DNA of 64,000 bases from Candidatus Staskawiczbacteria bacterium (GCA_016196125.1 JACPYG010000004.1:138-64137), one strand, 5' to 3'; positions 2,917-34,590 are shown, counted from the stretch's first letter. The notes: generated from the sequence alone by a model not told the origin. Translations and numbers: made by a program.

Positions 2917-3336
2917 CTAAAGATTATTTTTGTTTGACAAAAGAATTAAGGCCGATTGGCCCTGTATTTGGCCGTCCGGCAAAAGTTTTATAGTTATATT
3001 CAAATTATCTCCAATTTTTATTTCTCTTAAGTCAACTTTTTTTTGGACTGGTTTTCCTGCGCTGTCATTGACAAATGAATAAACCGGACTGTTTGCTGCC
3101 ATGCTAATTTTTATACTGTCGCCATTATAAGCCAAAGTAATATCTCTGCCTTCTATTTTAGAAACTTTGCCATAAGCGACAGTTGAAAGCACTGTTTTTG
3201 AACTTAGAGCTTTCATTATTGCCGCTGTTTTTTCTATTTGAGGCGATACTTGCAGTGTTTTATACCAAAAACCTGCGCCTGCGCCCAAAATCAAACAAAG
3301 CAATCCTACTAAAACTATTAAAATTATTTTATTCAC
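2917..3336 (-). CDS. hypothetical membrane-anchored protein (139 aa, GTG start)
   Basis: ORF track. Single N-terminal hydrophobic helix IILIVLVGLLCLILGAGAG. It lies first in the same-strand run with the two Cys-rich genes. Confidence 0.55.
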   Translation of the reverse strand: MNKIILIVLVGLLCLILGAGAGFWYKTLQVSPQIEKTAAIMKALSSKTVLSTVAYGKVSKIEGRDITLAYNGDSIKISMAANSPVYSFVNDSAGKPVQKKVDLREIKIGDNLNITIKLLPDGQIQGQSALILLSNKNNL

Positions 3337-3434
3337 CCCGTTAGAGGTTTGTCTTTATATAACTAAAATAGTCAATTTCAGACAACCACATTATTTTATT
3401 ATAATCCCCCGTTTTTTTAATAGCTCTAACGGGG
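3336..3434. repeat. inverted repeat, CCCCGTTAGA family, copy a (arms 3336-3346 and 3424-3434)
   Basis: ccccgttagag and ctctaacgggg form an 11-bp perfect inverted repeat with a 77-nt spacer. In mRNA sense the 3' arm ends on the G of the GTG start at 3336. Confidence 0.8.
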
Positions 3435-3530
3435 CCCATAATTTTATTATATTTTTATTTATTTAATCTACTATATTTTGTTATTTTACCTTTTCTAAAT
3501 TTCAAAAACAAATGTCAAGCTGTGCATAAC

Positions 3531-4199
3531 TCAAAATAATTTAATCGGGTAAAAACTTTTTCTGTGGATTTTACAATATCCGTATTTTTTTATCATTTTA
3601 AAATGATGATTTGTGCCATATCCTTTATGCTTATCAAAACAGTATTCTGGATATTTTTTATGAAATTTTTGCATTATTTCGTCCCTTGTCACCTTGGCAA
3701 AAATTGAAGCCAAAGCGCAGGAAAAAACTTTTTGATCGGCTTTAATTATTGATTTTTGAACCAAATTAATATTTAACTTCATATTTCCGTCAATAATTAA
3801 AACAAATTGCATGCCTGTTTCCGCTCTGACTAATTTTTTTTCCAGGTCTTTAACGGCTTTTATCATCGCCAATTTTGTTGCTTCCAAAATATTAATTTTA
3901 TCTATTATCTTTTCTGAAACAACGCCTATCCCCCATTCTATATCTGGATTTTTTTTAAAATAATTATAAATTTCTTCTCTTTTTTTTGGCGTTAATTTTT
4001 TTGAATCTTGAACCCCGGAATGTTTAGCTTTGACAAACTTAAACATCACCGCCCCAGCCACGACAGGTCCGGCCAAAGGTCCTCTCCCTGCTTCGTCTAT
4101 TCCTATGACAAGTTTAAGCCCTTTTTTCCAAAATTTTTTTTCTTCGTTAAAATTTGGATAATTTACCCCGTTAGAAATTTTTTTCCGCCTTATATTCAT
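3531..4199 (-). CDS. rnhB: ribonuclease HII
   Basis: GIDEAGRGPLAGPVVAGAV catalytic motif, length 222 aa. Confidence 0.9.
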   Translation of the reverse strand: MNIRRKKISNGVNYPNFNEEKKFWKKGLKLVIGIDEAGRGPLAGPVVAGAVMFKFVKAKHSGVQDSKKLTPKKREEIYNYFKKNPDIEWGIGVVSEKIIDKINILEATKLAMIKAVKDLEKKLVRAETGMQFVLIIDGNMKLNINLVQKSIIKADQKVFSCALASIFAKVTRDEIMQKFHKKYPEYCFDKHKGYGTNHHFKMIKKYGYCKIHRKSFYPIKLF

Positions 4200-4246
4200 A
4201 GTTCAAGCCACCCATTAGCAATTAAAATCTGTATTTCTAACGGGGT
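4165..4246. repeat. inverted repeat, CCCCGTTAGA family, copy b (arms 4165-4178 and 4233-4246)
   Basis: accccgttagaaat and atttctaacggggt form a 14-bp perfect inverted repeat with a 54-nt spacer. One arm is in the rnhB 5' UTR and the other lies in codons 8-13 (KISNGV). The start codon at 4199 sits in the loop. Confidence 0.8.
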
Positions 4247-4302
4247 TCATTGCTTGATTTTACCACCACAAAAGGTAAAATGACATATGATAAAATAACT
4301 AT

Positions 4303-7300
4303 ATGAAGTTTACTCATTTACATGTTCATAGTCATTATAGTTTGCTTGACGGCCTGCCGAAAATAGACGAACTTTTGGATTATGTAAAAGAATTGGGAAT
4401 GGATTCTGTGGCATTAACGGACCATGGTGTGATGTATGGCGCTGTTGAATTTTATAAAAAAGCTTGCGCCCGCGGAATAAAACCAATAATTGGCTGTGAA
4501 GTTTATGTCGCTTTTGAGGGAAGGCAAGACAAGAGAGCAAATATAGATTCAAAAAGCTATCATATGATTTTACTTGTAAAAAACGAAGTGGGGTATAAAA
4601 ATCTTGTAAAACTTGTAACAAAAGCGCAATTGGAAGGATTCTATTACAAAGCAAGAATTGATGAGGAAATCTTGCAACAGCACACAGAAGGCCTTATTGG
4701 CACTTCGGCCTGTTTGAACGGAAAAATTCCAAGAATGCTTTTATCAAATAAAAATGACGAAGCAGAGGAGACAGCAAAAAAATATGAAGGATGGTTTGGG
4801 GAAGGAAACTTTTATTTAGAAATACAAGACCATAAAAATATTCCGGAACAAGCAACTGTAAATAAAAAAATTATTGCCCTGTCAAAAAAAACCGGTATAC
4901 CTCTTGTGGCAACTAACGATGCTCATTATTTGAGGCCTGATGATGCGGAAGCGCAAGATATTTTGATGTTGATAAATACGGGAGCTGACGCCTTGGATCC
5001 GGAAAGGCTTTCTTTAAAATCAGACGATTTTTCAATGAGAAAACCTGAAGAAATGGCAGAACTGTTCAAAGATAATCCGGAAGCCATTGAAAATACGCAA
5101 AAAATTGTTGAGTCATGCAATTTTAATTTTGAATTGGGAAAAATATTATTCCCTAACTTTCCTGTTCCGGCAAATAAAACCGCTGAACAATTTTTAGAGG
5201 ATTTATGCCAACAGGGATTAAAAAATAGATTCGGGGAAAACCCTGACCCAAAAATAATTGAAAGGTTAAAATACGAACTCTCTATTATTAAAAAAACCGA
5301 TTTTGCCGGATATCTTTTAATTGTGCAGGATTTTGTCAATTGGGCAAAACAAAATCGAATAATTGTTGGGCCAGGCAGAGGTTCGGCCGGCGGTTCTTTA
5401 GTGGCATATCTTACGGGAATCACTAATATTGACCCTCTAAAACACGACCTGCTTTTTGAGCGATTTTTAAATCCAGAAAGAATATCAATGCCTGATATTG
5501 ATTTGGATTTTGCAGACAGGCGAAGAGACGAAGTTATAAGATATGTGGCTCAAAAATACGGACAAGATCACGTTGCTCAAATTATCACTTTTGGAACAAT
5601 GGCGGCAAGGGCGGTAATAAGAGACGTGGGCAGGGCTTTGGGATACGCGTATGGCTATTGCGATAAAATGGCAAAAATAATACCTGTTGGAATGGATCTT
5701 GCGGAAACTCTGGAAAAAGTATCAGAATTTAAAGATTTATACGAATCCGATGCGCAAGCAAAAAAACTGATTGATTTGGGAAAAAAACTCGAAGGCGTGG
5801 CTCGCCATGCTTCAACTCACGCCTGCGGTGTTGTGATATCGGCTGATCCGTTAACAGATTCTGTGCCGCTGCAAAGGCCAACTCAAGAAAACGGAAATGT
5901 TATTACTCAATATGAAATGCATAGCATTGAGGATTTGGGCCTTTTAAAAATGGATTTTTTAGGTTTAAAAAACCTGACTATTATTGAAGATACTCTGGCC
6001 AGAATTTATGTTATTCACAATGACTTAAAAATTGACATTGAAAATGTTCCCTTAGACGATAAATTGGCCTACAAACTGCTGCAAAACGCCTTAACAACAT
6101 CTGTATTTCAAATGGAAAGCGACGGTTTTAAAAGATATTTAAAAGAATTAAAACCAACCGTCTTTGAAGATTTAATTGCTATGGTGGCTTTATATAGGCC
6201 TGGTCCAATGCAGTTTATACCTGATTATATTAAAAGAAAACACGGCAAACAAAAAATAGAATATTTGCACCCAAAACTAGAACCAATTTTAAAAGCAACC
6301 CAGGGTATTTGCATTTATCAAGAGCAATTAATGAGAATCGCCCAGGAACTGTGCGGATTCACATTGGGAGAAGCAGATGTTTTGAGAAAAGCTGTCGGTA
6401 AAAAAATAAAAGAACTAATTGATGCCCAAAAGGAAAAATTCATAACGGGAGCCGTAAAAAATGGCGTTGATAAAAAAATAGCGGTAGAAATATGGGAATG
6501 GATTTTGCCTTTTGCCTCGTATGGTTTTAATAGAAGCCACAGCGCCGCTTATGCAATGATATCCTACCAAACTGCTTACTTAAAATCTCACTACCCCGTT
6601 GAGTTTATGGCATCGGTTTTAACTTCCGAAAAAGCCGATGTTGAAAGAATTGCCTTTTTAATTGACGAGTGCAAAAAAATGGATGTTGAAGTTTTGCCGC
6701 CAAACATAAATGAAAGTTTAAAAAACTTTACGGTTGTGCCAAACCAGAAAAAAATCAGATTTGGATTTTTGGCAATTAAAAATGTTGGCACCAATATAAT
6801 AGATGCAATTGTCCAAGAAAGAAAAACCAGCGGTCCGTTTAAATCTATCGGCGACTTTATACATAGGGTGCAATCAAAAGATTTGAATAAAAAATCAATG
6901 GAAGCTTTAATAAAGGCCGGCGCTTTTGACAGTTTGGCCGAAAGAAATCAACTTTTAACCAACTTGGAAAAACTGCTTGAGATTTCAAGAGAAAATAATA
7001 AATCACGCCAAACTAACCAAATGGGCTTGTTCTCGTCAATAAAAATAAGCAATAATGATATAAAACTCCAAGAAACCGCTCCAGCCAGTAATTTTGAAAG
7101 GCTAAACTGGGAAAAAGAGCTTTTGGGCCTTTATGTCAGTTCGCACCCGCTGGACGATTTTCGCAAGATTTTTGAAACGAGAACAACCGCCATAAGTAAA
7201 ATCGACGATACATGGGTTAATAAAAAAGTAACAATTGGAGGAATTATTTCCAGTATCAAAAAAATTATCACTAAAAATGGAAAGCCAATGCTATTTATGA

Positions 7301-7482
7301 AACTCGAAGATTTGACTGCCAAAACAGAAATTGTTGTTTTTACATCATTATTAGAAAGAAACCCGATTGCTTTGCAAGAAAACAAAATTGTTTTTGTGGC
7401 GGGCCGTGTTGACGACCGCAATGGAGAAATAAAAATAGTAGCCGACGATGTAAGAGAAATAATAACGGTAAATCAAGCGTAA
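4303..7482 (+). CDS. dnaE: DNA polymerase III alpha subunit
   Basis: PHP-domain N-terminus MKFTHLHVHSHYSLLDG, GPGRGSAGGSLVAY, FNRSHSAAYA motifs, 1059 aa. Confidence 0.95.
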   Translation: MKFTHLHVHSHYSLLDGLPKIDELLDYVKELGMDSVALTDHGVMYGAVEFYKKACARGIKPIIGCEVYVAFEGRQDKRANIDSKSYHMILLVKNEVGYKNLVKLVTKAQLEGFYYKARIDEEILQQHTEGLIGTSACLNGKIPRMLLSNKNDEAEETAKKYEGWFGEGNFYLEIQDHKNIPEQATVNKKIIALSKKTGIPLVATNDAHYLRPDDAEAQDILMLINTGADALDPERLSLKSDDFSMRKPEEMAELFKDNPEAIENTQKIVESCNFNFELGKILFPNFPVPANKTAEQFLEDLCQQGLKNRFGENPDPKIIERLKYELSIIKKTDFAGYLLIVQDFVNWAKQNRIIVGPGRGSAGGSLVAYLTGITNIDPLKHDLLFERFLNPERISMPDIDLDFADRRRDEVIRYVAQKYGQDHVAQIITFGTMAARAVIRDVGRALGYAYGYCDKMAKIIPVGMDLAETLEKVSEFKDLYESDAQAKKLIDLGKKLEGVARHASTHACGVVISADPLTDSVPLQRPTQENGNVITQYEMHSIEDLGLLKMDFLGLKNLTIIEDTLARIYVIHNDLKIDIENVPLDDKLAYKLLQNALTTSVFQMESDGFKRYLKELKPTVFEDLIAMVALYRPGPMQFIPDYIKRKHGKQKIEYLHPKLEPILKATQGICIYQEQLMRIAQELCGFTLGEADVLRKAVGKKIKELIDAQKEKFITGAVKNGVDKKIAVEIWEWILPFASYGFNRSHSAAYAMISYQTAYLKSHYPVEFMASVLTSEKADVERIAFLIDECKKMDVEVLPPNINESLKNFTVVPNQKKIRFGFLAIKNVGTNIIDAIVQERKTSGPFKSIGDFIHRVQSKDLNKKSMEALIKAGAFDSLAERNQLLTNLEKLLEISRENNKSRQTNQMGLFSSIKISNNDIKLQETAPASNFERLNWEKELLGLYVSSHPLDDFRKIFETRTTAISKIDDTWVNKKVTIGGIISSIKKIITKNGKPMLFMKLEDLTAKTEIVVFTSLLERNPIALQENKIVFVAGRVDDRNGEIKIVADDVREIITVNQA

Positions 7483-7533
7483 TTGCCTTCTTTCATATAT
7501 AAAAGAAGTATAATTATTAAAAATTATAATACT

Positions 7534-9273
7534 ATGGAACAAATAGAAAAAATTAGGCATTCGTTGGCGCATATAATGGCGCAAGCCATTTTGGATTTTT
7601 GGCCTAAAACAAAATTAGGCATTGGCCCTGCAATTGAAAACGGGTTTTATTACGATATGGCTTTGCCCGCCGAAGCCCTTGGCGAAGGCGGGAATGAGGA
7701 ATTTCTCAAAAAAATCGAAGTACGAATGAAAGAACTGATAAAAGAAAATCAAAAATTTATCGGGAAAAAAGTAGCTAAAATTACAGCAAAAAGATTATTT
7801 AAAAATCAGCCATATAAATTAGAATTAATAAAAGAATTGCCGGGAAAAACCGTTGGAACTTACCAAAACGGAAATTTTTTAGATTTATGCAAAGGAGGCC
7901 ATATTTTAAACACAAAAGAAATTAGGCCAAATGCTTTCAAACTTACGAAAATTGCAGGGGCTTATTGGAAAGGCAGTGAAAAGAATAAAATGTTGACCCG
8001 TATTTATGGTTTAGCTTTTCAAACTGAAAAAGAACTGCAAGATTTTATAAAAATGCAAGAAGAGGCAGAAAAAAGAAACCATAGAATATTGGGACAAAAA
8101 TTAGATCTTTTTATTTTTTCTGATTTAGTGGGGCAGGGCTTGCCTTTATTTACTCCCAAGGGCACCATATTAAGAGATTTATTAGATTCTTATGTTTGGG
8201 AACTGCGCCGGGCAAAGGGCTATGAAAAAGTAGACATACCTCATATAACCAAAAAAGAACTTTATGAAACCAGCGGCCACTGGGATAAATTTAAAGACGA
8301 ACTTTTTAAAATAAATACCCGAGAAGGCCATGTTTTTGCCCTAAAGCCGATGAATTGCCCTCATCACATACAGATATTTTCCCGCAAAAAATGGAGCTAT
8401 CGCGAACTTCCGCAAAGATACGCATCTACAACCAAAATTTATAGAGATGAGCAAACAGGAGAACTTTTCGGATTATCAAGAGTGCGCTCTATCACTCAAG
8501 ATGACGCTCATGTATTTTGTAAATTTGAAGATATAGAAAACGAATTTTACAATGTGTGGGATATTATAGATAATTTCTATGGAACATTTGGATTTAAACT
8601 CAAAGTACGATTATCTTTAAGAGATCCTAAAACTCCAGAAAAATATCACAGTCTGCCGGAATATTGGGATCGGGCCGAAGAAATGCTAAGAAACATTATT
8701 AAAAAAAGAGAAATAATAAACAGTGAAGCTAAGGGCGAAGCGGCATTTTATGGCCCCAAAATAGATTTTATTGCCACTGATTCAATAGGACGAGAATGGC
8801 AAGTTGGAACAATTCAGCTGGATTTTGTGCAACCCAAAAAATTTAAACTTTATTATGCTTCAGACAAAGGAGAAGAACCTGTCGTAATTATTCATACCGC
8901 CATTATGGGTTCTATCGAAAGATTTTTGTCTATTTTAATAGAACATTACTCAGGAGCTTTTCCGGTTTGGCTTTCTCCGGTGCAAGTTTGCGTAGTTCCA
9001 ATTTCAGAAAAACATTTAGAATACGCCAATAAAATTAAGAAAGATTTAGAGAATAAAAATATACGCGCAGAATTAAAAAACGAAAATGAAACTTTGGGCA
9101 AAAAAATAAGAGAGGCTGAAATACAGCGCATCCCCTACCTTTTGATTATTGGCGATAAAGAAATACAAGCGCAATCAGTAAGCGTAAGGCAAAGAGACAA
9201 AGGAGACGTTGGAATTATAAATTTAGAAAAATTTATAGAAAAAATCACAGAAGAAATAACAAAAAAAATTTAA
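7534..9273 (+). CDS. thrS: threonyl-tRNA synthetase (no TGS domain)
   Basis: IRHSLAHIMAQA (editing/SAD HxxxH), class II motifs RDEQTGELFGLSRVRSITQDDAHVF and GSIERF. I prefer the ATG at 7534 (MEQIEK) over the TTG at 7483 used by the track. Confidence 0.9.
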   Translation: MEQIEKIRHSLAHIMAQAILDFWPKTKLGIGPAIENGFYYDMALPAEALGEGGNEEFLKKIEVRMKELIKENQKFIGKKVAKITAKRLFKNQPYKLELIKELPGKTVGTYQNGNFLDLCKGGHILNTKEIRPNAFKLTKIAGAYWKGSEKNKMLTRIYGLAFQTEKELQDFIKMQEEAEKRNHRILGQKLDLFIFSDLVGQGLPLFTPKGTILRDLLDSYVWELRRAKGYEKVDIPHITKKELYETSGHWDKFKDELFKINTREGHVFALKPMNCPHHIQIFSRKKWSYRELPQRYASTTKIYRDEQTGELFGLSRVRSITQDDAHVFCKFEDIENEFYNVWDIIDNFYGTFGFKLKVRLSLRDPKTPEKYHSLPEYWDRAEEMLRNIIKKREIINSEAKGEAAFYGPKIDFIATDSIGREWQVGTIQLDFVQPKKFKLYYASDKGEEPVVIIHTAIMGSIERFLSILIEHYSGAFPVWLSPVQVCVVPISEKHLEYANKIKKDLENKNIRAELKNENETLGKKIREAEIQRIPYLLIIGDKEIQAQSVSVRQRDKGDVGIINLEKFIEKITEEITKKI

Positions 9274-9281
9274 AACTATAA

Positions 9282-9419
9282 AGGCGGAAATAAGATATTT
9301 TTCAATTCGGGCTCGGGTCGCGAGAGTTTCCCGCTTTGCGGGAGCTCCCGACCTAGGCCGTGGGTTTGCCTGCCGGCAGGCAGGCAGGGCGGACGTTGAA
9401 AAATATCTTATTTCCGCCT
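9282..9419. mobile_element. MITE-like element with 24-bp terminal inverted repeats around a GC-rich palindromic core
   Basis: aggcggaaataagatatttttcaa (9282-9305) is the exact reverse complement of ttgaaaaatatcttatttccgcct (9396-9419). The core contains tcccgctttgcggga, cgggagctcccg and gcctgccggcaggc. Flanking direct repeat aaaactat occurs at 9272-9279 and 9420-9427. Confidence 0.6.
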
Positions 9420-9429
9420 AAAACTATCT

Positions 9430-11052: not shown

Positions 11053-11055
11053 AAA

Positions 11056-14562: not shown

Positions 14563-15387
14563 CTAAACCGCCATTGGAGCTTTAATACTCGGATGATATT
14601 TATAATCAACCAATTTTATATCTTCCATTTTAAAGTCGCCAATATTTTTTATTTCCGGATTTAGCCATAATTTTGGCAAAACATAAATTTCCCGGGCTAA
14701 TTGCTCCTTTACCTGTTCAAAATGATTCAAATAAATATGGGCATCTGCCAAAATAATTACGCATTCATATGGTTCCAAACCAACAGCTTGCGACACCATG
14801 TGTAATAATAAAGAATAAGAAGCAATATTAAACGGCACTCCCAAAAATGTGTCGCAGCTTCTTTGATACATCATTAAGGATAATTTCTTGTCAACGCAAA
14901 AAAATTGAAAAAGCAAGTGGCAAGGCGGCAAAGCCATCATGTCTAACTCGGCCGGATTCCAAGCCGAAACGATTATTCTCCTGTCGTTCGGGTTTTCTTT
15001 TAATTTTTTTATGACATTTTCAATTTGGTCAATCGGCGTATCGTTATAAGGGGACTTCCAGCTGCGCCACTGCGCTCCATAAACCCTGCCCAAATCGCCG
15101 TCAAACTTTGCTTTTGGCTTCCAATAAGGGGCTTCTGCATTTCCATCCCAAATATGGCAGCCCAACTTTTGCAATTCTTTTACATCTTGGCTACCTGATA
15201 GAAACCAAATCAGTTCCGCTTTTACGGCTTCAAAAGCTAATTTCTTTGTTGTAACTGCCGGAAAACCGTCTGCCATTTTAAAGCGCATTGGCAAGCCAAA
15301 CAAAGCGCGCGAACCGACACCGGTCCTGTCGGGCCTGTCTGTCCCCTCTTCCATTATTTTTTTTAAAACATCCAAATACTGCTTCAC
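14563..15387 (-). CDS. thyA: thymidylate synthase (ThyA type, GTG start)
   Basis: MKQYLDVLKKIMEEGTDRPDRTGVG, PPCHLLFQF, 274 aa. Confidence 0.95.
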   Translation of the reverse strand: MKQYLDVLKKIMEEGTDRPDRTGVGSRALFGLPMRFKMADGFPAVTTKKLAFEAVKAELIWFLSGSQDVKELQKLGCHIWDGNAEAPYWKPKAKFDGDLGRVYGAQWRSWKSPYNDTPIDQIENVIKKLKENPNDRRIIVSAWNPAELDMMALPPCHLLFQFFCVDKKLSLMMYQRSCDTFLGVPFNIASYSLLLHMVSQAVGLEPYECVIILADAHIYLNHFEQVKEQLAREIYVLPKLWLNPEIKNIGDFKMEDIKLVDYKYHPSIKAPMAV

Positions 15388-15518
15388 CCCGTTAGAAGTT
15401 AGGGCAAAAAATAATTTTATTAAAAATTATTTTTTGCTTGCACTTTTTAATTATATTATCTTAAAATATTCAACCCCTATTGAAGTTTTTTATTGTTTTA
15501 TTCCAACTTCTAACTGGG
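15387..15518. repeat. inverted repeat, CCCCGTTAGA family, copy c (arms 15387-15400 and 15505-15518)
   Basis: ccccgttagaagtt pairs with aacttctaactggg at 13 of 14 positions, with a 104-nt spacer. The 3' arm in mRNA sense ends on the G of the thyA GTG start, the same geometry as copy a. Confidence 0.7.
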
Positions 15519-15520
15519 CT

Positions 15521-16141
15521 TCACAATATTTTTTTAATTATTTTTTTAATATCTTTAAAAACTTCCGGAATAGCCTTTTCGCCATTAACCATGATAACAT
15601 TTTTGAACATTTCGGGCATTTTTTTATAAAACTCACTCACTTTTACAAGTTTTTCTTTTTTCTCAAAAAGCTCTTTTGGCTCTCCCCTGCCTTCAATTCT
15701 TTCCATGCAGGATTCCGGCAAAACATCAATTATGATAGTCAAATCTGGCAATAGAAATTGTTCATTCATTTTTATTAATAATTGTAAATCCAAACCATCC
15801 GAAGCGCCATAGGCAAAAGTTGAAAAAGCATAGCGGTTAGAAAGCACAAATTTGCCTTTTTTTAAAGCGGGAATAACCTTGTTGTCCAAATGTTCTTTTC
15901 TGTCTTGCACATACAAACTTTGCAATTCTAATGGCGTAAGTTTAATTTCTTCCCTTAATGCCTGCTTAATTTTCCTGCCAGCTTCCGACTCCATTGTCGG
16001 TTCTTTTGTTGCAATAACTTGCTTGCCTCTTAAATAATCCAATAAAAGCTCAATTTGGGCGTTTTTACCGGAACCGTCCAATCCTTCAATAACAATAAAC
16101 CCCCCACCTTTTTGTTTTTTAAAAAGAACTTTGCCGTTCAT
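15521..16141 (-). CDS. tmk: thymidylate kinase
   Basis: FIVIEGLDGSGKNAQ P-loop. ATG at 16141 (MNGKVLFKKQKGGGFIVIEG) is preferred. The track ORF extends to 16210. Confidence 0.85.
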   Translation of the reverse strand: MNGKVLFKKQKGGGFIVIEGLDGSGKNAQIELLLDYLRGKQVIATKEPTMESEAGRKIKQALREEIKLTPLELQSLYVQDRKEHLDNKVIPALKKGKFVLSNRYAFSTFAYGASDGLDLQLLIKMNEQFLLPDLTIIIDVLPESCMERIEGRGEPKELFEKKEKLVKVSEFYKKMPEMFKNVIMVNGEKAIPEVFKDIKKIIKKIL

Positions 16142-16180
16142 GGAATAATACCAATCATTTCTTGAAAAAAGGTGGGGGGT
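16099..16180. repeat. inverted repeat, GTGGGGGG family, spanning the tmk start (arms 16099-16113 and 16166-16180)
   Basis: accccccaccttttt and aaaaaggtggggggt form a 15-bp perfect inverted repeat. The ATG at 16141 sits in the 52-nt loop. Confidence 0.8.
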
Positions 16181-16206
16181 AAATTTGCCCTGGTAATTGC
16201 CTTTAA

Positions 16207-22249: not shown

Positions 22250-22957
22250 TTATTTTTTCTTATTGTTTAATCTATTTATTTCTTCTTGAATTTCTTTTAT
22301 AACTTCCTTATTACCAATTTCTCCATCTAAGCTAAAGATTATAAATACTTTTCCTTTATATTTTTTCTCAAAATCAATAAAATTTTTCTTCATCCTTTCT
22401 GATATAGAATAATTACCGAAATTTGCTTTAGCTGTAATTGGTTTAATTTGTATACCAAAAGCATACTTACCGACAAATCCTAAGTAATCTATATCGCCAG
22501 CATGGTCTAAATCGGTTTCACTTTCAACAAAATTTACGTCTGGAAAATATTTTGACAATTCATCATTTACTACTGATTTTTCACGAATAAAACCATCGTA
22601 AGTACGATTTATTGTTAAATTATAAATATAATCTATACAGTCCTGTAGTGATAATTCGCTAAATGCTGATTGCCATTCGGGAATCACAACTTCTGTAATT
22701 TTTTCATGCAAACGTTCGCCCAATTCTTTCAAAACGTCTGTGGTTATTTTTACTGGTTCTTTATTTTCAGTATAAGCCTTTTCGAAGTACCATTTTTCCC
22801 ATTCATCTATTATTTTAGGTTGACATTCTCTTATAAGCGCCATAACCGCGCCAACTTTATTTGGTCGCGATAATTGGTAAGTCTGGCAGGCATAATTTAA
22901 AACTTTTTCTTTTTTACCAAATTCCATAGAAAACTTTTTAGAAGTTTTATTTGACAT
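22250..22957 (-). CDS. putative type II restriction endonuclease (PD-(D/E)xK-like)
   Basis: Overlaps the methyltransferase by 11 nt. Candidate catalytic DHAGDIDYLG...FGIQIKP. Possibly MjaI-like, which I cannot verify. Confidence 0.5.
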   Translation of the reverse strand: MSNKTSKKFSMEFGKKEKVLNYACQTYQLSRPNKVGAVMALIRECQPKIIDEWEKWYFEKAYTENKEPVKITTDVLKELGERLHEKITEVVIPEWQSAFSELSLQDCIDYIYNLTINRTYDGFIREKSVVNDELSKYFPDVNFVESETDLDHAGDIDYLGFVGKYAFGIQIKPITAKANFGNYSISERMKKNFIDFEKKYKGKVFIIFSLDGEIGNKEVIKEIQEEINRLNNKKK

Positions 22958-24236
22958 AATTATATTTTAGTAAACTATTAAATTTATTCTTATACTTGTA
23001 TTCCATTTCTGTATTAGGCAAAGCAAATCCATCTTTAATCATATGTGCGTTAATAAAAGTTTTATTTTGTAAATAAAGATAACATAACAAATTATTATAT
23101 TTATCGTATTTTAAAGCATCAAATTTCATAAAAACCCTCTGTCCCTTAGTTTTATTAATTAAATACTCCACTGCTTCACCATTAATTTTTGGATTTTCTT
23201 TTATTCCGAGTAAACGAATTATTAAACCATTATTTAAGAGTATTTTTTCTGGGTCTAATATTTCTTTAACAGTATAAAATTCATCTTTTATATCATAGCT
23301 GTTTTTATCTATTTTTGATCCAAATTGTAATTTTTTGAGATCTATCTTTTTATCTAATTTGTGGGGGTCTTTAAATATGTAAGGTAATTGATTTATTCTT
23401 TCATCAAAGTTAATATTTTTTGGCGCGTCGACAAATTCTAATGAATCGTTCTTAGAATTAATAACACCTATTTTATTTTTTATAATTGTTAGGAATTCTT
23501 GGTTAATTTCGTATCCAACTGAGTTTCTGCTAAGATTTTTTGAAACCAAAGAAGTTGTTCCACTCCCCAAGAATGGATCCAATACTGTATCGCCAACAAA
23601 TGAAAACATTTTTATTAGTCTTCTTGGTAATTCTTCTGGAAATACTGCTATATGCCCATCCTGTCTCGCCCCTCCAAAATTCCAATGACCTTGAAAATAT
23701 TGATTCCACTCCTCTTTAGTTAGTTTAGATTCTTCTTTTATTATTCTATCAACTTTTGGTCCATCGCTTTGTTTTTTAAATATTAGAATAAATTCATAAT
23801 CTAATTTTATAATTCCATTTCTTGGATAAGGGAAACTACCCATTATTGTAGCTCCTCCGGTAGTATTCATAGTAGTAGTTTTTTGCCAAATGATTGAACC
23901 CATATAATCAAATCCTATTGTTTCGCAGAACTTAATTATCTCTGTTCTTATTGGAATAACCTTATAGCGACCATAATAAACAGCACGAGCAAATTGATCG
24001 CCAATATTTATGCAAAGACGACAACCATTTTCTAAAACTCGATGACATTCATTCCAAACTAAGTTTAAATAGTTAATATATTTTTCGTAACTATCATTAA
24101 AACCAATCTGATTATCTGAGCCATAATCTTTTAGTTGCCAATATGGAGGTGATGTAATAATAAGTTGAATAGAGTTATCTTTTAACTCTTTCATATCCCT
24201 TGAGTCACTTATTATAATTTTATGATTGGTTTTCAT
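22947..24236 (-). CDS. beta-class N4-C/N6-A DNA methyltransferase with C-terminal SNase-like domain
   Basis: Motif IV ITSPPYW lies near the N-terminus and motif I DPFLGSGTT lies later. The last 90 aa or so (GEAVEYLINKTKGQRVFMKFD...NNLLCYLYL...NAHMIKDGFALP) resemble a thermonuclease fold. Confidence 0.8.
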   Translation of the reverse strand: MKTNHKIIISDSRDMKELKDNSIQLIITSPPYWQLKDYGSDNQIGFNDSYEKYINYLNLVWNECHRVLENGCRLCINIGDQFARAVYYGRYKVIPIRTEIIKFCETIGFDYMGSIIWQKTTTMNTTGGATIMGSFPYPRNGIIKLDYEFILIFKKQSDGPKVDRIIKEESKLTKEEWNQYFQGHWNFGGARQDGHIAVFPEELPRRLIKMFSFVGDTVLDPFLGSGTTSLVSKNLSRNSVGYEINQEFLTIIKNKIGVINSKNDSLEFVDAPKNINFDERINQLPYIFKDPHKLDKKIDLKKLQFGSKIDKNSYDIKDEFYTVKEILDPEKILLNNGLIIRLLGIKENPKINGEAVEYLINKTKGQRVFMKFDALKYDKYNNLLCYLYLQNKTFINAHMIKDGFALPNTEMEYKYKNKFNSLLKYNYVK

Positions 24237-28640: not shown

Positions 28641-28676
28641 AAAAAAATAAGCCCAGGCTCAAAGAACCAAGGCTTT
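28641..28676 (-). terminator. terminator-like hairpin after the small ORF
   Basis: In minus sense AAGCC-N17-GGCUU is followed by AUUUUUUU. Confidence 0.35.
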
Positions 28677-28684
28677 GTTGTTTT

Positions 28685-28813: not shown

Positions 28814-28886
28814 GAATAGCCCCTAATTATTGTTAAAATTTATTAAAAAGGTATAATAAACAAAAAATTATAAATAGACAATCCAT

Positions 28887-29855
28887 ATGAAAGAAGCAAT
28901 TAAAAATTTAAAAAACCAGTTAAAGTTTGAGCCAATAATTGAAAATAAAGAAGAATTGATTTTGACCAAAAATTTTGTTGTCTGTGGAATGGGCGGCTCG
29001 CACTTGGCCGCCGACTTGCTAAAAACATGGAATCCATCGCTTAATTTAACCGTGCACCACGATTATGGGCTTCCATCTTTGGCTGAATTGAATAATTACC
29101 TGATAATCATCAGTTCTTATTCCGGCGACACCGAAGAAGCAATCGACGGTTTTAATGAGTCAATTGCCAAAAACCTTCCCTTGGCTTGCGTTTCTACCGG
29201 AGGCAAATTATTGGAATTGGCAATTGAGCATAAAAAACCATATATAAAAATACCCGATACCGGCATTGAGCCGAGGTCTGCCGTCGGTTTTAGCATCACT
29301 TCCCTGCTGGCTCTTATGAGAGAAGAAAAGGCGCTATTAGAAATTAAAGAAACAGCTGATATTATAGATGTTAATAAAGCCGAAAAAGAAGGCAAACTGC
29401 TTGCTGAAAAGCTAAAAAACTATATACCTTTGATATACTCTTCCACCAAGAATAAGGCAATCGCCAACAACTGGAAAATAAGATTTAACGAAACCGGTAA
29501 AATACCTTCGTTTTATAATACTCTTCCCGAACTAAATCATAATGAAATGGTTGGTTTTGACGGGGGGAAAAAGACCAAAAAACTTTTAGAACATTTTTAT
29601 TTTATATTTTTGCAAGATGATACGGATAATCAAAGAATTTCACTTAGAATAGAAACTCTAAAGGAAATGCTTTCAAAGAGAGGTTTTTTGACGGAAACAT
29701 CATACCTCTCGGGCAATAGCATCTGGGAAAAAATATTTACATCTTTACTGATAGCCGACTGGACATCTTATTACACAGCGGAACAATATGGATTAGAAGC
29801 CCAGGAAACAAAAATTGTAAGCGAATTTAAAAGCATAATAAAAGAGGTTCGTTGA
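28887..29855 (+). CDS. bifunctional phosphoglucose/phosphomannose isomerase (SIS domain)
   Basis: CGMGGSHLAADLL, SYSGDTEE, NHNEMVGF. Ends in TGA. Confidence 0.8.
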   Translation: MKEAIKNLKNQLKFEPIIENKEELILTKNFVVCGMGGSHLAADLLKTWNPSLNLTVHHDYGLPSLAELNNYLIIISSYSGDTEEAIDGFNESIAKNLPLACVSTGGKLLELAIEHKKPYIKIPDTGIEPRSAVGFSITSLLALMREEKALLEIKETADIIDVNKAEKEGKLLAEKLKNYIPLIYSSTKNKAIANNWKIRFNETGKIPSFYNTLPELNHNEMVGFDGGKKTKKLLEHFYFIFLQDDTDNQRISLRIETLKEMLSKRGFLTETSYLSGNSIWEKIFTSLLIADWTSYYTAEQYGLEAQETKIVSEFKSIIKEVR

Positions 29856-30236
29856 TTATTTTATGCTTAACTTTTCTTTTACAAGAGAAACAATCTGGTT
29901 AATATTAACATCAGATTTAACGATATAATCTGTTCCGCTTACGGCTTCAATGGCTTGGCTAATATGTTCCGGGTCATCAAAACCAGTTAAAAACACCATT
30001 TTGGAATTAATGCCTTTTTCTTTTATTTTTTTAGCCATTTCTATGCCATTCATTTGCGGCAACTTGATATCTATAAGTATCAAGTCTGGCTTCTCTTTCC
30101 CCGCTAAAACTAAGCCATCTTCTGCATTTAAAGCATGGATTGTGGAAAATCCATTTGAATTAAAGCCTTGTTCAAGAATCCACAAAAAATTTTTATCATC
30201 TTCCACCAATAAAATTTTTTTGTTTATTTTATCCAT
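29856..30236 (-). CDS. single-domain response regulator (CheY-like receiver)
   Basis: KILLVEDD, DLILIDIKLPQMNG, conserved K (IVKS). Confidence 0.85.
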   Translation of the reverse strand: MDKINKKILLVEDDKNFLWILEQGFNSNGFSTIHALNAEDGLVLAGKEKPDLILIDIKLPQMNGIEMAKKIKEKGINSKMVFLTGFDDPEHISQAIEAVSGTDYIVKSDVNINQIVSLVKEKLSIK

Positions 30237-30245
30237 ATATTTTTT

Positions 30246-30272
30246 CCGCCTTCGCCGGTTGGCGAATGGCGG
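30246..30272. repeat. GC-rich hairpin between the two receiver genes
   Basis: ccgccttcgcc-ggtt-ggcgaatggcgg. It shares the 11-mer ccgccttcgcc with the reverse complement of the thrS GC patch at 7665-7692. Confidence 0.6.
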
Positions 30273-30313
30273 ATTTTAATTTAAGATAAATACTCTTTTA
30301 GGAGTATTTATTT

Positions 30314-30706
30314 TTAAGATAAATACTCTTTTATAAGTTCCAATAACTGCGTTGGGCTTATGTTTGCCTTAATAATGAATTTATCCGGCTTTGCATTACC
30401 TAATTGTTGCATTTGCACATCTTGCTGATTTGTTAAAATAAAAACCTTAATATCTTTGGTTTTTTCATTTTCTTTTATTTGTTTGAAAATCTCTATTCCG
30501 CTGATGTCCGGCAGTATTAAATCTAAAAGCACAATATCTGGCTTTGATTCCGTGTCATCTTCTATATTTTTTATCATGCTCATAACTTCTTGGCCCGAAC
30601 CAAAAACTTTAACATCAAAATTGGCTTTTTTCATTAATGTTTCGTAAATATCAACAATCGCAGGATCGTCCTCCACAAGAATTATTTTTTTTACTTTATT
30701 TGCCAT
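30314..30706 (-). CDS. single-domain response regulator (CheY-like receiver)
   Basis: KIILVEDD, DIVLLDLILPDISG, IIKA. Confidence 0.85.
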   Translation of the reverse strand: MANKVKKIILVEDDPAIVDIYETLMKKANFDVKVFGSGQEVMSMIKNIEDDTESKPDIVLLDLILPDISGIEIFKQIKENEKTKDIKVFILTNQQDVQMQQLGNAKPDKFIIKANISPTQLLELIKEYLS

Positions 30707-30744
30707 ATGGTTTTAGGATACCTTTATTCTAACCCATTTCAATC

Positions 30745-31065
30745 TTACTTGAAAGGATCTGTATAATTTTTATCCAAAGATAATAAATTTTTAAAAATAT
30801 TCTCTCTGTTTTGCCACTCTTCTGCAACCGACCTGTATATGTTTTCTTGAAATTTACTATAAACAGAAGAAATTTCCGGTTCCTGCGCGTCTATTAGCAA
30901 TACATACTTATAAAACAGGAGTCCGCCAATTAATATATCTATTAAAATAAAAACTAAAATGCACAAAAACGCATTTTTTCCCAAAATCCATGGAATCTTT
31001 TTTATATATAAACCTGACGATTCTTTAAAATTATAAAAATGTTTTTTAAAAAATTTTTTCATCAA
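30745..31065 (-). CDS. small membrane protein, unknown function
   Basis: One TM helix (AFLCILVFILIDILIGGLLF). Abuts the pilO stop. Confidence 0.5.
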   Translation of the reverse strand: MMKKFFKKHFYNFKESSGLYIKKIPWILGKNAFLCILVFILIDILIGGLLFYKYVLLIDAQEPEISSVYSKFQENIYRSVAEEWQNRENIFKNLLSLDKNYTDPFK

Positions 31066-31548
31066 TTATTTGGTAACAGCTTCTACTAAAAAATTAAAAT
31101 CAACTGTCGGCTCTTGCGGCGACTTTTTAATTGTTAAGTCCTTTATTCTCATCAAATACGGACTTGCGTCCAATTTTTCAGAAAATTTCAATATATTTAA
31201 AAACTGTCCGGTGCCGTAGATGCTGGATATGGCAACCGGCAAGTTGTTAAAACCTTCTTTCGATAAAGAAATATCCAATTTGACATCTGTGCCAATCCCC
31301 GAATCATTGGCGGTCTTTTCTAAAAATTCAATGAAGTTGACCGGATCTTTAGAATCAACAAATAATTGATCAACTTTTTCTAAATTATAACTATAATTAT
31401 TGTATTTTTTTTTGAAATTATTCAATTCCATATTTTGCTCATTAAGGGAAATTACCTTGCTCTTGCTCAAAAAGATTTCTTTGGAAATATTTTTAACATC
31501 TCTTAGAGCCGGATATATCAAAAACACAATTATAAACAAAGATATCAA
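31066..31548 (-). CDS. pilO: type IV pilus assembly protein PilO-like
   Basis: N-terminal TM helix, coiled region and C-terminal ferredoxin-like part, positioned after pilN. Confidence 0.6.
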   Translation of the reverse strand: MISLFIIVFLIYPALRDVKNISKEIFLSKSKVISLNEQNMELNNFKKKYNNYSYNLEKVDQLFVDSKDPVNFIEFLEKTANDSGIGTDVKLDISLSKEGFNNLPVAISSIYGTGQFLNILKFSEKLDASPYLMRIKDLTIKKSPQEPTVDFNFLVEAVTK

Positions 31549-31581
31549 TGAAAAATGGCAATTATTATGTAAATTTTTGTT

Positions 31582-32139
31582 TTATTTTTCGTCATATAAA
31601 AATTCGAATGTTACATAAAAATTTATGTCTGCTGATTTTATCCAGCTATTGGGCGGAAAATAAACATCTTTTATTTTATTATTGCTTTCAATATTATCTT
31701 TAAAGATTAATAAATTATCCCTTGTGTCGCTTTGACCAGAAATATTGACTTTTATTTTATTATCTTTTTCATCAACATTTATGGAAACATCATTAAAAAA
31801 CAATCCATCCGGCCTTTGAATATCTAAAATAGTTTTTATCACATTGCTAAAATATACTTCTTTTTTGTAAAAAGTGTCAGCTTTGATTAACCCCTCGTTA
31901 TATTTTTTAACAATACTGCCATAGGATAAAAAGTCAGAAGTTTCATATTTTGCTTCGACGCTACCTAAAACACTTTTTTGATAGCTCATCTGCCCTAAAA
32001 TATAAAACTTTAATGAAAATAAAACCAAGGCCAAATAAACCAAAGGAATTATTATTATGTATCCTAAAATTATAGTCAGCTTTTTATTTCTTTCCAATGA
32101 CAATTTTTCTTTTTCTTTTGGCGGTAAAAGATTAATCAT
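31582..32139 (-). CDS. pilN: type IV pilus assembly protein PilN
   Basis: MINLLPPKEKEK N-terminus followed by a TM helix. Confidence 0.7.
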   Translation of the reverse strand: MINLLPPKEKEKLSLERNKKLTIILGYIIIIPLVYLALVLFSLKFYILGQMSYQKSVLGSVEAKYETSDFLSYGSIVKKYNEGLIKADTFYKKEVYFSNVIKTILDIQRPDGLFFNDVSINVDEKDNKIKVNISGQSDTRDNLLIFKDNIESNNKIKDVYFPPNSWIKSADINFYVTFEFLYDEK

Positions 32140-32140
32140 A

Positions 32141-33223
32141 TTAATTATCTATTTGCTCGCTAGCCCCGCGCAATGCCAATCCCAAAGCGGCGGTAAACGA
32201 AAGTATATTTTCGGGCGGAAAAAATTTCTTTTTCGGCTGGATAATATTGGAAAACGGATTTCCAAGTTCTACTTTAATTTTTAATTCTTCGGAAAGAAAA
32301 TCTGATATATTTTTTAAATTTGCCCCGCCGCCCGATAAAATAATTTTTTCTATTTTGCCGTCGTATGGAAAATATTCATGATTTGAATGTCCATGATAAA
32401 AATCTATATATTTTTTAATTTGGCTTGCCAAGTCAAGTAAAATCGGCTCTATGATTTTATCAATACTATGATGTTTTTTATCCAAACCATGTTTGACTTT
32501 TAATATTTCGGCATCATGCAAATTAATGCCTAAACTGTCAGAAATAGCATTTGTCAGCTGTTGGGAAGAAATGGGAATTGAACATGTAAAACGTATGGAG
32601 CCGTCGGAAAAAATAATAAAACCGGTGCTGTCGTACCCTAAATCAATAAGAATTACGGAAGAAGCAGTTTTTTCGTTTTTCAACAAAGCTCTGGCAATGG
32701 CCTGTGATTCTACTTCTAAAACGCAAGGTATGAGACCCGCATTCTTAAAAGACAAAACATAAGAATCAATTATGGATTTTGGCATTACGTTAACTAATAA
32801 ACCCAAGTGCTTTGAATCTTTTTTATGGGCGTCGATAATTTGAAAATCTAAGTATGACTTGTCGATAGCCAGAGGTATGTAGTTTTCCGCCTCAAAAGGC
32901 AAAGCTAATCTTAATTCTTCTTCCGTCATTTTTGGCATCTGGATTAATTGTGAAAAAGATTTTTCTTCCGGCAAAGAAACAATGACATATTTTGTGCCCA
33001 ATTTTTTGCCTTTGACCGTATTACAAGCCATTTTTATAATATTTGCCAAAGATTCTTTATCCTGTATTACCCCCTCTTTTATAACGCCCGGTTTTATCTT
33101 TGCCTCATTAAAAGAAACCAAACTAAAACCTTTTCGCTTTTTTATAAGTTTTATAATTTTTAAAGATGAATCATTGATATCAACTCCGAATATTTCCGGT
33201 TCTAAGTTTAAAAATTTTAGCAT
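32141..33223 (-). CDS. pilM: type IV pilus assembly ATPase-fold protein PilM
   Basis: FGVDINDSSLKIIKL, actin-like fold length (360 aa), C-terminal SGGGANL. Confidence 0.8.
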   Translation of the reverse strand: MLKFLNLEPEIFGVDINDSSLKIIKLIKKRKGFSLVSFNEAKIKPGVIKEGVIQDKESLANIIKMACNTVKGKKLGTKYVIVSLPEEKSFSQLIQMPKMTEEELRLALPFEAENYIPLAIDKSYLDFQIIDAHKKDSKHLGLLVNVMPKSIIDSYVLSFKNAGLIPCVLEVESQAIARALLKNEKTASSVILIDLGYDSTGFIIFSDGSIRFTCSIPISSQQLTNAISDSLGINLHDAEILKVKHGLDKKHHSIDKIIEPILLDLASQIKKYIDFYHGHSNHEYFPYDGKIEKIILSGGGANLKNISDFLSEELKIKVELGNPFSNIIQPKKKFFPPENILSFTAALGLALRGASEQIDN

Positions 33224-33260
33224 TTTGTAATTATAACATTTTTAACAATAAATAATGCTA

Positions 33261-34508
33261 TTATTGTTCTCCCCAGCTTACCACTTTCCATCCGCCAGAC
33301 GGTCCGCTGGAAAAAAATGCGCTTGCCAATCCGCTTTCATAAGTAATTACTGCATTATTGTTCATTATTAATTTATATCCGGTCACCTCACGGGCGGCAA
33401 AAATATTGGAAACTGTAACACCTCCGGCGCTTGTGTAAAAAATTGCTCCAGTTGCGCTATTGCTTACAGTAATGGCAGAATTTGAAGCGTTGGTCGAAAG
33501 AACTAAAAGATAGCTTCCCGCCTGTCCAGACCCTTGCAAAGCGGAGGAATTGCTGGGAGTGATGGTCCCATCAGACAATATGACTCCGCTCAACGAACCA
33601 TAACCGCTGGCAAGTTTTATTTTGGCGCTGTTGCTTACGGTAATATTGCCTGTTACATAAACGGTTCCGGTCAAAGTGAGAATGGCGCTGTTGCTGACAG
33701 ATAAGTTTCCATTAATTTTTTTTGGGCCTAATGACATCGTTTGGGTACCAGAAAGGGTAACACTGCCGATGATTCCTCCGTCTTCTGCATCGTTTTTCCA
33801 GCCATCAATCTGGCTTTGGGAAATAGGCAAAGGTTGCGACGGTATCTCGGCGGATTGGATAGAAGTTGTGCCGCCAACCGTACAGGTATTAGTACCGCCT
33901 GTAACATAAGTTAAATTTCCGTCAATTGTGGAATTTATGCAGCTATATACAAGGGCATTTCCTTTTACATGCATACCGATAATGCTATGGCCATTGCCAG
34001 AAATTATGACATCATTGTCGATTGTTGCGCTGTTTGAGCCTGTAATATTTCCATTAGAAAAAACATTGCCTATTATTCTGCTGCTATTTGACATTTGCAG
34101 CCCTCCCTGCCCTACTTGGGCTCCGTAGAAAAAAGAAACTCCTTGGCCGTCTATGGCATAAACAACCTGTGTTGTTTTAACGACACCGGTATTATTTCCC
34201 TGCGAGCTGATAGACCTTGAACCGCCGATAGTCGCAGGTATGACCACATTGGCTGTAGAATTGTTGATATTTAAATTGTAAGAAATCGGTGACATTTGAG
34301 GATTATTGTTCAAGCGCAATAATGAATCCTCTATTCCCGATTCGGCGGTATAATAAGCCTGAGTTGATTTCACGGCATTAGCGGCGATTTTTTGCCTGTA
34401 AAAAATCAACGAACTCATAGAAATCGCAATGCTTAACATTATTAATAAAATAAAAAATACAATTAAGGTAACAATAAATCCTTTTTGCTTGTTATTTAAG
34501 TTCTTCAT
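33261..34508 (-). CDS. large PilX-like pilin-like protein with beta-helix-like Gly/Ser/Asn repeats
   Basis: N-terminus KQKGFIVTLIVFFILLIMLSIAI (pilin-like helix, no Glu5), then AQAYYTAESG (PilX_N-like). Confidence 0.6.
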   Translation of the reverse strand: MKNLNNKQKGFIVTLIVFFILLIMLSIAISMSSLIFYRQKIAANAVKSTQAYYTAESGIEDSLLRLNNNPQMSPISYNLNINNSTANVVIPATIGGSRSISSQGNNTGVVKTTQVVYAIDGQGVSFFYGAQVGQGGLQMSNSSRIIGNVFSNGNITGSNSATIDNDVIISGNGHSIIGMHVKGNALVYSCINSTIDGNLTYVTGGTNTCTVGGTTSIQSAEIPSQPLPISQSQIDGWKNDAEDGGIIGSVTLSGTQTMSLGPKKINGNLSVSNSAILTLTGTVYVTGNITVSNSAKIKLASGYGSLSGVILSDGTITPSNSSALQGSGQAGSYLLVLSTNASNSAITVSNSATGAIFYTSAGGVTVSNIFAAREVTGYKLIMNNNAVITYESGLASAFFSSGPSGGWKVVSWGEQ

Positions 34509-34517
34509 ATAATTTTT

Positions 34518-34590
34518 ACCCCGTTAGAAGTCTTATTATATTTTCAACACGATAAATTTTTTCTTATTTTATACAGACTTCTAACGGGGT
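34518..34590. repeat. inverted repeat, CCCCGTTAGA family, copy d (arms 34518-34533 and 34575-34590)
   Basis: accccgttagaagtct and agacttctaacggggt form a 16-bp perfect inverted repeat with a 41-nt spacer. It fills the gap between the pilin stop (34590) and the PilX-like start (34508). Confidence 0.85.

Follow-up and report, generated by a model that had tools for sequence, protein, structure and literature searches.

Four inverted-repeat pairs lie near gene starts in a 64,000-nucleotide stretch of a Candidatus Staskawiczbacteria bacterium genome (JACPYG010000004.1:138-64137; this whole stretch is referred to as the window). The pairs are interpreted here as the terminal inverted repeats of a non-autonomous element of the miniature inverted-repeat transposable element (MITE) type, probably mobilised by a DDE-type transposase supplied in trans, a reading to which we assign a probability of roughly 0.85. 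Members of this family, designated family 1, have inserted at T-N-N-A targets with duplication of 4 bp. The family is a new one of the MITE and Rickettsia palindromic element (RPE) kind, unusually widespread, and is not a dedicated translation signal. An earlier note on this DNA had described the four pairs and proposed that they control translation initiation or represent REPIN-like mobile hairpins, and had overlooked both the direct 4-bp repeats outside each pair and second and third families of like architecture.

The core motif, CCCCGTTAGA/TCTAACGGGG, was found eight times in the window, seven times exactly and once with a mismatch at 15509, where about 0.1 chance matches were expected. 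Counted as a 10-mer core, all eight occurrences form four inward-facing pairs in the order CCCC...GGGG. A 12-mer search allowing at most one mismatch gave 7 matches in comparison to 0.12 expected, and none of 100 shuffled sequences reached 7, indicating that the eightfold recurrence of a GC-rich motif in a window averaging about 35% G+C, with genes mainly on the minus strand, is real and far above chance. The terminal repeat is CCCCGTTAGAAR, of about 12–14 bp, all eight arms in the window end in CCCCGTTAGAAR/YTTCTAACGGGG, and individual arms are not self-palindromic. Re-measurement upheld the pair coordinates and spacer lengths first reported (Table 1), including the single mismatched pair, which belongs to the copy between tmk and thyA. 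The reported gene starts also stand: the GTG at 15387 is a genuine thyA start, as both its product and the homologous proteins open in the manner of VKQYLD, a small open reading frame (ORF) resembling a membrane protein begins at the GTG at 3336, the rnhB ATG at 4199 lies between its arms, and the PilX-like ATG lies 9 nt downstream of an arm. The start-proximal "TRAA" extension present in all four copies, which had gone unnoticed, is the target-site duplication and not part of the motif.

Table 1. Inverted-repeat elements in the window, with positions counted from its first nucleotide and flanking 4-mers given in window orientation.
Copy	Region	Element	Arms	Spacer (nt)	Flanks or duplication	Location and remarks
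F1a	3332..3438	3336-3434	3336-3346, 3424-3434	77	TTCA (3332-3335) / CCCA (3435-3438)	GTG start of ORF 2917-3336
F1b	4162..4249	4166-4245 (80 nt)	4165-4178, 4233-4246	54	TTTA / TTCA	rnhB start; element plus duplication 84 nt
F1c	15383..15523	15387-15519	15387-15400, 15505-15518	104	TTCA / TTCA	between tmk and thyA; distal arm degenerate (CTAACTGGGC)
F1d	34515..34593	34519-34589	34518-34533, 34575-34590	41	TTTA / TTAA	between pilin gene (34590-35117) and PilX-like gene (33261-34508)
F2a	16096..16183	16100-16179			TAAA / TAAA	ends CCCCCCACC/GGTGGGGGG; in frame (84 nt), tmk codons 10-38
F2b	36578..36689	36582-36685			TAAA / TAAA	in frame (108 nt), leader of pilin gene 35727-36722
Third family 2 copy (tentative)	35057..35147	35061-35143			TGAG / TAAA	spans start of pilin gene 34590-35117
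Unrelated MITE	9274-9429	9282-9419	perfect 24-bp repeats, AGGCGGAAATAAGATATTTTTCAA		8-bp duplication, AAAACTAT	junction of thrS and next gene

Empty sites, each with a single 4-mer, were identified in relatives of the source organism for all four family 1 copies, and virtual excision of each window element together with one 4-mer recreated the sequences of these sites. Between tmk and thyA the duplication is exact; on the mRNA strand its upstream TGAA contains the tmk stop codon (TTG TGA A) and its downstream TGAA, joined to the terminal G of the element, provides the thyA GTG start. In the related loci L123 to L127 the two genes overlap by 4 nt, aaaATGAAGCaa, and this start-stop overlap is recovered when F1c is excised. 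The F1a duplication has decayed (two of four positions differ), and on the mRNA strand the last G of the element and the TG of TGAA likewise form the GTG start of the downstream ORF. Excision of F1a yields ATTATGAATAAA, which has an ATGAAT start and reads MNKIILIV, and the orthologue in L130, which is the gene after rnhB, starts ACAATGAATAAA without an element. The arm therefore ends exactly on the G of GTG because the last G of the element joins the TG of the duplicated TGAA, so that this match is a by-product of insertion and not a purpose-built signal. The F1d flanks differ at one of four positions, the upstream copy contains the pilin stop codon TAA, and excision leaves a spacer of about 6 nt between the pilin and PilX-like genes; the corresponding empty sites are TTATTAAAAATTATATG in L133 and TTATTAATTATATG in L134.

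The F1b insertion has displaced the start of rnhB. Its flanks, TGAA and TAAA on the mRNA strand, differ at one of four positions, and the present ATG (4199) sits within the element. Virtual excision gives rnhB an ATGAAT start. In L131, whose RnhB is 74% identical, the site is empty and reads AAGCAATGAATTACCC, in place of AAGCAATGAA, the 80-nt element and TAAATTATCC in the window, and a three-way rnhB alignment shows a clean gap at the element. RnhB of L131 and homologues starts MNYPNFNEEKKFWKKG (MNYPNF...), matching the reconstructed start, while the predicted N-terminus in the window is MNIRRKKISNGV. L130 (RnhB 73% identical) shares the insertion, with a perfect TGAA/TGAA duplication, identical arms and an RnhB starting MNIKRKKISNGV, and the insertion must therefore be old. 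The ATG inside the element is the annotated rnhB start in both the window and L130; the downstream TGAA copy in the window has since changed to TAAA and the new ATG within the element is used. Two further observations concern the ancestral start. An extended -10-like sequence, TGGTAAAAT, lies 6 nt upstream of the ancestral ATG (within 4250-4290) and is also conserved in both L130 and L131, which makes it probable that rnhB was originally transcribed as a leaderless mRNA. Following insertion, the ancestral AUG would open an 11-codon upstream ORF, MNPVRNTDFNC, running through the 5' arm.

Element size ranges from 71 to 133 nt in the window and from 29 to 146 nt overall, which is too short to encode a transposase. 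The outer arms of F1a and F1b could also be paired around rnhB, but this pairing is coincidental; synteny in L130 and L131 shows that rnhB is ancestral at this position.

The wider distribution of family 1 was determined by scanning one genome per species with the pattern CCCCGTTAGAA-N40-70-TTCTAACGGGG, which returned at least 120 loci (L001-L120) in comparison to an estimated 1–2 chance matches; the family-wide counts given below (135, 138 or 121 copies; 146 pairs) were taken among the matches listed. According to their record titles, the listed metagenome-assembled genomes (MAGs) belong to about 10 higher-level groups and include many Patescibacteria classes, Pirellulales, Phycisphaerae and other Planctomycetota, Omnitrophota, Nitrospirota, Nitrospinota, deltaproteobacterial lineages, Gammaproteobacteria, Elusimicrobiota, KSB1, Ratteibacteria and Stahlbacteria, and the G+C content of these loci ranges from 31% to 63%. 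Pair polarity is strict, with 146 neighbouring pairs in the CCCC...GGGG order, hardly any short-range everted pairs, almost no solitary arms in the listed loci, and loops of 4 to 124 nt.

Of 135 copies, 75 are bordered by an exact direct repeat of 4 bp, in comparison to 8.1 ± 2.5 (maximum 19) in 2000 permutations of the flanks, and this number rises to 96 when one mismatch is allowed. Almost no duplications were found among these 135 copies when lengths of 3, 5 and 6 bp were tested. The duplication has the form T-N-N-A, with a weaker preference for G before and C after it, and the commonest examples are TAAA/TTTA (29 copies), TCAA/TTGA (12) and TGAA/TTCA (10). These 4-bp direct repeats are target-site duplications, and the arms are therefore terminal inverted repeats. 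Only two matches were obtained from viral contigs, which indicates that the element is not phage-borne.

Several listed loci showed features of their own. A subfamily with a GC-rich interior (GCGCCCGCGC..GCGCGCCC..GGGCC..GGGCGGGC), able to form nested hairpins, is present in L013, L027, L029, L072, L086 and L116, in both orientations and at different sites of different Patescibacteria-type MAGs, and is translated within DnaE in L029; a plasmid BLAST search with this subfamily gave no match. L101 contains two 97%-identical family 1 copies (3592-3667 and 5362-5437), inverted around a 1.7-kb interval that has no convincing ORF and no Rfam match, and each copy has its own duplication (TTTA, TAAA). 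Clustering of ORFs in L001-L120 identified PilB-like and PilC-like genes, recognised by eye, as the most recurrent family 1 neighbours (7 and 4 loci, respectively), and the pilus cluster of the window likewise holds three or four insertions.

Many family 1 copies are translated. The length of element plus duplication is divisible by three in 86 of 138 listed copies, in comparison to 46 expected (z of about 7 by our own arithmetic). When 121 copies were virtually excised, 34 of the insertion sites fell within long ORFs, 27 of them with an element in frame; among the in-ORF copies inspected the proportion is 21 of 22, most of which read x-P-V-R-(N/S)...(I/T/L)-S-N-G-(V/A). Ten host proteins, from several phyla by MAG title, were verified with Pfam: SecA, a TPP/POR enzyme, DnaE, Kdo kinase, a class II aminoacyl-tRNA synthetase, a sulfatase, Mfd, a Mur ligase, LigA and IF-2. 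In-frame insertions within the window concern rnhB, tmk and pilin genes.

The positional bias towards start codons noted earlier is borne out locally. Within the window, which is 85% coding by our own ORF list, three of the four copies overlap a start codon in comparison to 29 of 6315 T-N-N-A sites (P of about 4e-7), so that the local placement is statistically real. The targets of these three copies are (A/G)TGAA overlapping the start codon, and in the fourth case the stop codon TAA of the preceding pilin gene lay within the target. Across the wider family starts are not favoured over stops, as listed copies have flanks within 30 nt of a start or a stop about equally often (31 vs 36), and some lie between convergent genes or inside ORFs. 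In comparison to random T-N-N-A sites, the 121 listed sites are depleted inside long ORFs (28% vs 70%) and enriched at starts (6% vs 1%), at stops (7% vs 2%) and between genes (44% vs 22%). Clustering on starts is most simply interpreted as survivorship. Occlusion of the initiation region, a thermosensor or a processing site, as suggested previously, is not supported as the origin of the pattern: the pairs are missing from orthologous genes in relatives and, in the wider family, copies are also found at stops and inside genes. The RNA hairpin may nevertheless have a secondary influence on expression. A Shine-Dalgarno-like motif (GGAG/GAGG/AGGA) precedes only 6 of 62 window genes and upstream regions are A/T-rich, which suggests that Shine-Dalgarno pairing plays little part in translation initiation in this organism.

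Elements of similar architecture with different ends were also found in the window and are designated family 2. Excision of F2a gives MIKGNYQGKFIVIEGLDGSGK, and Tmk of L123 starts MIKNEYPGKFIVVEGLDGSGK / MIKNEYPGKFIVVEG, the canonical N-terminus. F2b has inserted into the G-F-T codons GGG-TTT-ACC of a prepilin leader, fitting the G|TNNA|C preference, and its excision restores MMNFSSLKNNG|FTLIEVIVV, a canonical prepilin N-terminus. F2b has an occupied counterpart in L134 and an empty site in each of L133, L136 and L137, and empty sites thus exist for two family 2 copies. The F2b arms differ from those of the L134 orthologue (3060-3190), where CCCCCC/GGGGGG is replaced by CCCAGC/GCTGGG through concerted changes that keep the stem perfect. 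The element at 35061-35143 is a probable third family 2 copy; its flanks do not match and excision gives no clean reading frame. The unrelated MITE at 9282-9419 has a GC-rich structured core and fills the junction between thrS and the next gene, where L123 has only TAGCTATG. A GC-rich palindrome, CTGCCGGCAGGCAGG, occurs inside unrelated small elements (window 9340-9390, L030 3961-4040 and L120 5301-5391) and may be a further nested mini-palindrome.

These features can be brought together in a proposed mechanism in which a DDE-type transposase acting in trans would make a 4-bp staggered cut at T-N-N-A. Start and stop contexts (ATGAA, GTGAA, TAA-A, TGA-A) contain the favoured targets TGAA and TAAA, and only harmless insertions survive in a compact, Shine-Dalgarno-poor genome. 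Insertion into (A/G)TGAA leaves the upstream gene its TGA stop while the terminal G of the element rebuilds a GTG start downstream, and insertion into TAAA duplicates the stop codon. Within genes, if element and duplication together span a multiple of three nucleotides, the copy is read through as x-P-V-R-(N/S)...(I/T)-S-N-G-(V/A). Transcribed repeats are predicted to pair as a long stem, perhaps with secondary effects on initiation or translational coupling.

Several observations weigh against a conventional MITE interpretation. Neither the window nor about 930 kb of related loci yielded an autonomous element or transposase carrying these repeats. When 579 ORFs from these loci were clustered all against all, no recurrent transposase emerged, with only PilB and PilC recurring, and a search of L001-L120 and the window for long elements bounded by the repeats returned only the coincidental F1a/F1b pairing. 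Pfam scans of 30 window ORFs detected no DDE, Y1 or RAYT domains, and the remaining ORFs were judged by eye to be housekeeping genes. Furthermore, the interiors of the four window copies are mutually unrelated and most others are unique, apart from one spacer family found in multiple genomes, which is unusual for MITEs amplified from a master copy. A total length of 29 nt with a loop of 7 nt, as seen in some copies, is difficult to square with a transposase that brings together the two ends of a single element. The inner arm positions next to the core pair in 81–97% of copies through alternative base pairs; neither this nor the concerted two-arm changes in L134 would be predicted by classical repeat recognition by a transposase in itself. 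A plain MITE model thus leaves the loops, the 29-nt copies, the missing partner, the arm changes and the sharing of ends across groups unexplained.

Candidate sources of the enzyme were also considered. Members of the IS1380 family have ends starting with CC and duplications of 4–5 bp, both of which fit the present elements, and the related eukaryotic piggyBac element has the repeat CCCTAGAAAG with a TTAA duplication, resembling the CCCCGTTAGAAG/T-N-N-A arrangement described here. These are the nearest possible leads; no IS1380-like or piggyBac-like transposase with these ends was found in the window or the listed loci. IS1247 has an inverted repeat of 16/13 and a direct repeat of 5 (PMC3281130). 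Literature searches for the exact motif, for MITEs in the candidate phyla radiation and for insertion sequence (IS) family names in combination returned nothing relevant. The sole transposase-like ORF in the window (59462-59992) encodes only a helix-turn-helix domain (HTH_23/28/29/32), which by our reading resembles the N-terminus of an IS630/IS481-type transposase; the duplications of those families do not fit. A class I Tyr/Trp-tRNA synthetase ORF at 59873-60544 is truncated and its end overlaps this ORF, and a 130-nt stretch at 59451-59585 is repeated at 60681-60818, so that 59451-60818 looks like IS debris and a broken gene.

The predicted pairing of the arms was the basis for weighing explanations centred on the hairpin itself. 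The arms pair in the predicted minimum-energy RNA fold at all four family 1 loci (z -3.5 to -7.2), and the same is true of all six window elements examined (z -3.5 to -8). This is compatible with the view that the hairpins are, or have become, cis-regulatory RNAs in which the stem masks a start, couples stop to start or is cut by RNase III, mobility being only the mode of arrival. The tmk stop and thyA start both lie at the base of a stem, structure near the start should matter in a Shine-Dalgarno-poor organism, arm positions agree at 26/26 in the comparison of the window with L130, against about 83% identity by eye in the spacer, and the concerted changes in the L134 orthologue of F2b preserve the stem. 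Correia elements provide a precedent, as they are cut by RNase III at their repeats (PMC10969869). Nevertheless, the orthologous genes of close relatives work without the element, wider-family copies are as frequent at stops as at starts and also occur between convergent genes and inside ORFs, and the evidence for conservation comes from two sequence pairs. Neither orthologous conservation nor a conserved loop, as expected of a structured cis-regulatory RNA, was found; loop sequences are unrelated to one another, and Rfam scans covering the window, 17 structured-spacer loci, L101, L121 and L122 detected only tRNA and rRNA. A metagenome scan with PilC recovered only three close relatives, too few for covariation statistics. 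A regulatory RNA is accordingly an unlikely explanation, albeit one with some substance. The kept and co-varying arms suggest either selection for the stem or arm-to-arm correction or conversion.

The mode of movement may also depend on the hairpin. A cross-phylum hairpin class, conserved only in its 12–14-bp stem and moved by a structure-recognising or otherwise undescribed enzyme, is a speculative and rather improbable reading. Such a class would be suited to compact genomes through regeneration of starts by G+TG and duplication of TAA-A or TGA-A stops, would be translatable in both orientations (PVR...SNG), and would have its stem kept by selection (e.g. for stop-start bridging or coupled translation) or by arm-to-arm conversion. 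Movement as single-stranded DNA by a structure-specific enzyme, either of the HUH/Y1 type (REP/REPIN with RAYT, or IS200/IS605 derivatives) or undescribed, that reads the folded stem and not duplex repeats would be consistent with the strict stem polarity, the pairing kept at variable positions, the concerted arm changes in L134, the free size (7 to more than 100 nt) and sequence of the loop and the lack of a DDE partner. In contrast, it is made very improbable by the locus-specific 4-bp duplication confirmed at empty sites, which HUH/Y1 systems (IS200/IS605, REP/RAYT) are not known to produce, by the lack of Y1, RAYT or HUH domains in the window ORFs scanned, and by arms that are not palindromic REP units.

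Resident DNA sites fit the data least. The same repeat at several loci with unrelated spacers, pairs just upstream of genes and promoter-like hexamers in the spacers could reflect invertible promoter switches (invertons) flipped by one recombinase; recombinase synapsis, however, requires longer spacers, given minimal loop sizes, than the 41–104 bp of the window copies or the 7 bp reached elsewhere. Target duplications and empty sites indicate insertion and not a resident switch, many copies are translated inside genes, and no recombinase gene was seen in the window, leaving this possibility with next to no credibility. Equally little credence is given to DNA uptake sequences or regulator sites of a DNA-metabolism or competence regulon (thyA, rnhB, dnaE, pilus genes). 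The neighbouring genes do concern DNA metabolism and type IV pili, PilB and PilC recur near copies in other genomes, and Neisseria uptake sequences often occur as inverted pairs, but the copies described here are spread over many phyla with unrelated neighbour genes, are almost never single sites, show one pair polarity only and are polymorphic insertions with duplications. Integron attC sites were also considered and rejected, as the order of the GTTAGAA/TTCTAAC boxes with respect to the loop is reversed and the neighbours are housekeeping genes.

Two other regions of the window were noted. A second partial Tyr/Trp-tRNA synthetase ORF at 43091-43822, covering Pfam profile positions 94-243 only, possibly represents a further gene broken by an interruption or frameshift; no ORF occupies the next 450 nt or so, as far as 44280. 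Within 22250-24236, an MjaI-like restriction endonuclease ORF adjoins an ORF identified by eye as a putative DNA methyltransferase, and these would form a restriction-modification pair.

If the MITE-type interpretation holds, in-frame palindromic insertions in essential genes, so far treated as a peculiarity of Rickettsia, would extend to Patescibacteria, Planctomycetota, Omnitrophota, Nitrospirota, Elusimicrobiota and other groups. The signature of T-N-N-A followed by CCCCGTTAGAAR and its mirror image provides a means of searching for further copies. It is important to note the consequences for annotation of streamlined genomes, where start codons can be shifted into the element, N-termini are extended (rnhB, tmk, pilin leaders) and GTG starts are created, and the elements account for odd peptide insertions in proteins of candidate phyla. 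The question raised is which enzyme moves elements conserved only in a 12-bp stem across phyla.

Comparison with known systems places these elements among the short palindromic repeats of bacteria without assigning them to a described family. The previous suggestion of a REPIN-like mobile hairpin holds in so far as duplications and empty sites demonstrate a mobile palindrome with a target preference. The likeness to REP/REPIN extends to inverted pairs of short GC-rich repeats, intergenic hairpins and many copies per genome, but the elements are not of REPIN/RAYT type: REPINs have no duplication, consist of REP units that are each an imperfect palindrome with a conserved tetranucleotide, and are accompanied by a RAYT gene, and the RAYT/TnpA(REP)-like gene that had been proposed as a search target did not appear in the Pfam scans of 30 window ORFs. 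RPEs (Ogata et al. 2000, summarised in PMC10969869) are in-frame palindromic insertions in Rickettsia genes and are similar in being short, palindromic, selfish elements that are often in frame in unrelated housekeeping genes, encode a family-specific peptide, do not destroy the host gene, have intergenic copies too and, like the present elements, have no known transposase. RPEs are, however, about 100–150 bp long, have a conserved interior in each family and occur in Rickettsia only, whereas the elements described here are conserved only in their 12–14-bp ends, carry a 4-bp T-N-N-A duplication and occur in MAGs labelled as many phyla. Homology to the RPE-1 to RPE-10 families is unlikely on grounds of host range and because no core is conserved. 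Terminal inverted repeats, a target duplication and the lack of a transposase gene are also shared with Correia/NEMIS elements of Neisseria, ERIC, RUP and the QMITEs of Coxiella. These MITEs, too, insert close to genes and are transcribed along with them as hairpins, with possible changes to starts, promoters and the processing of mRNA (PMC10969869). Correia elements have a TA duplication, 26-bp repeats and a conserved core, and the families named are restricted to a genus or family; in comparison, the elements described here combine a 4-bp T-N-N-A duplication with very short repeats and unrelated cores.

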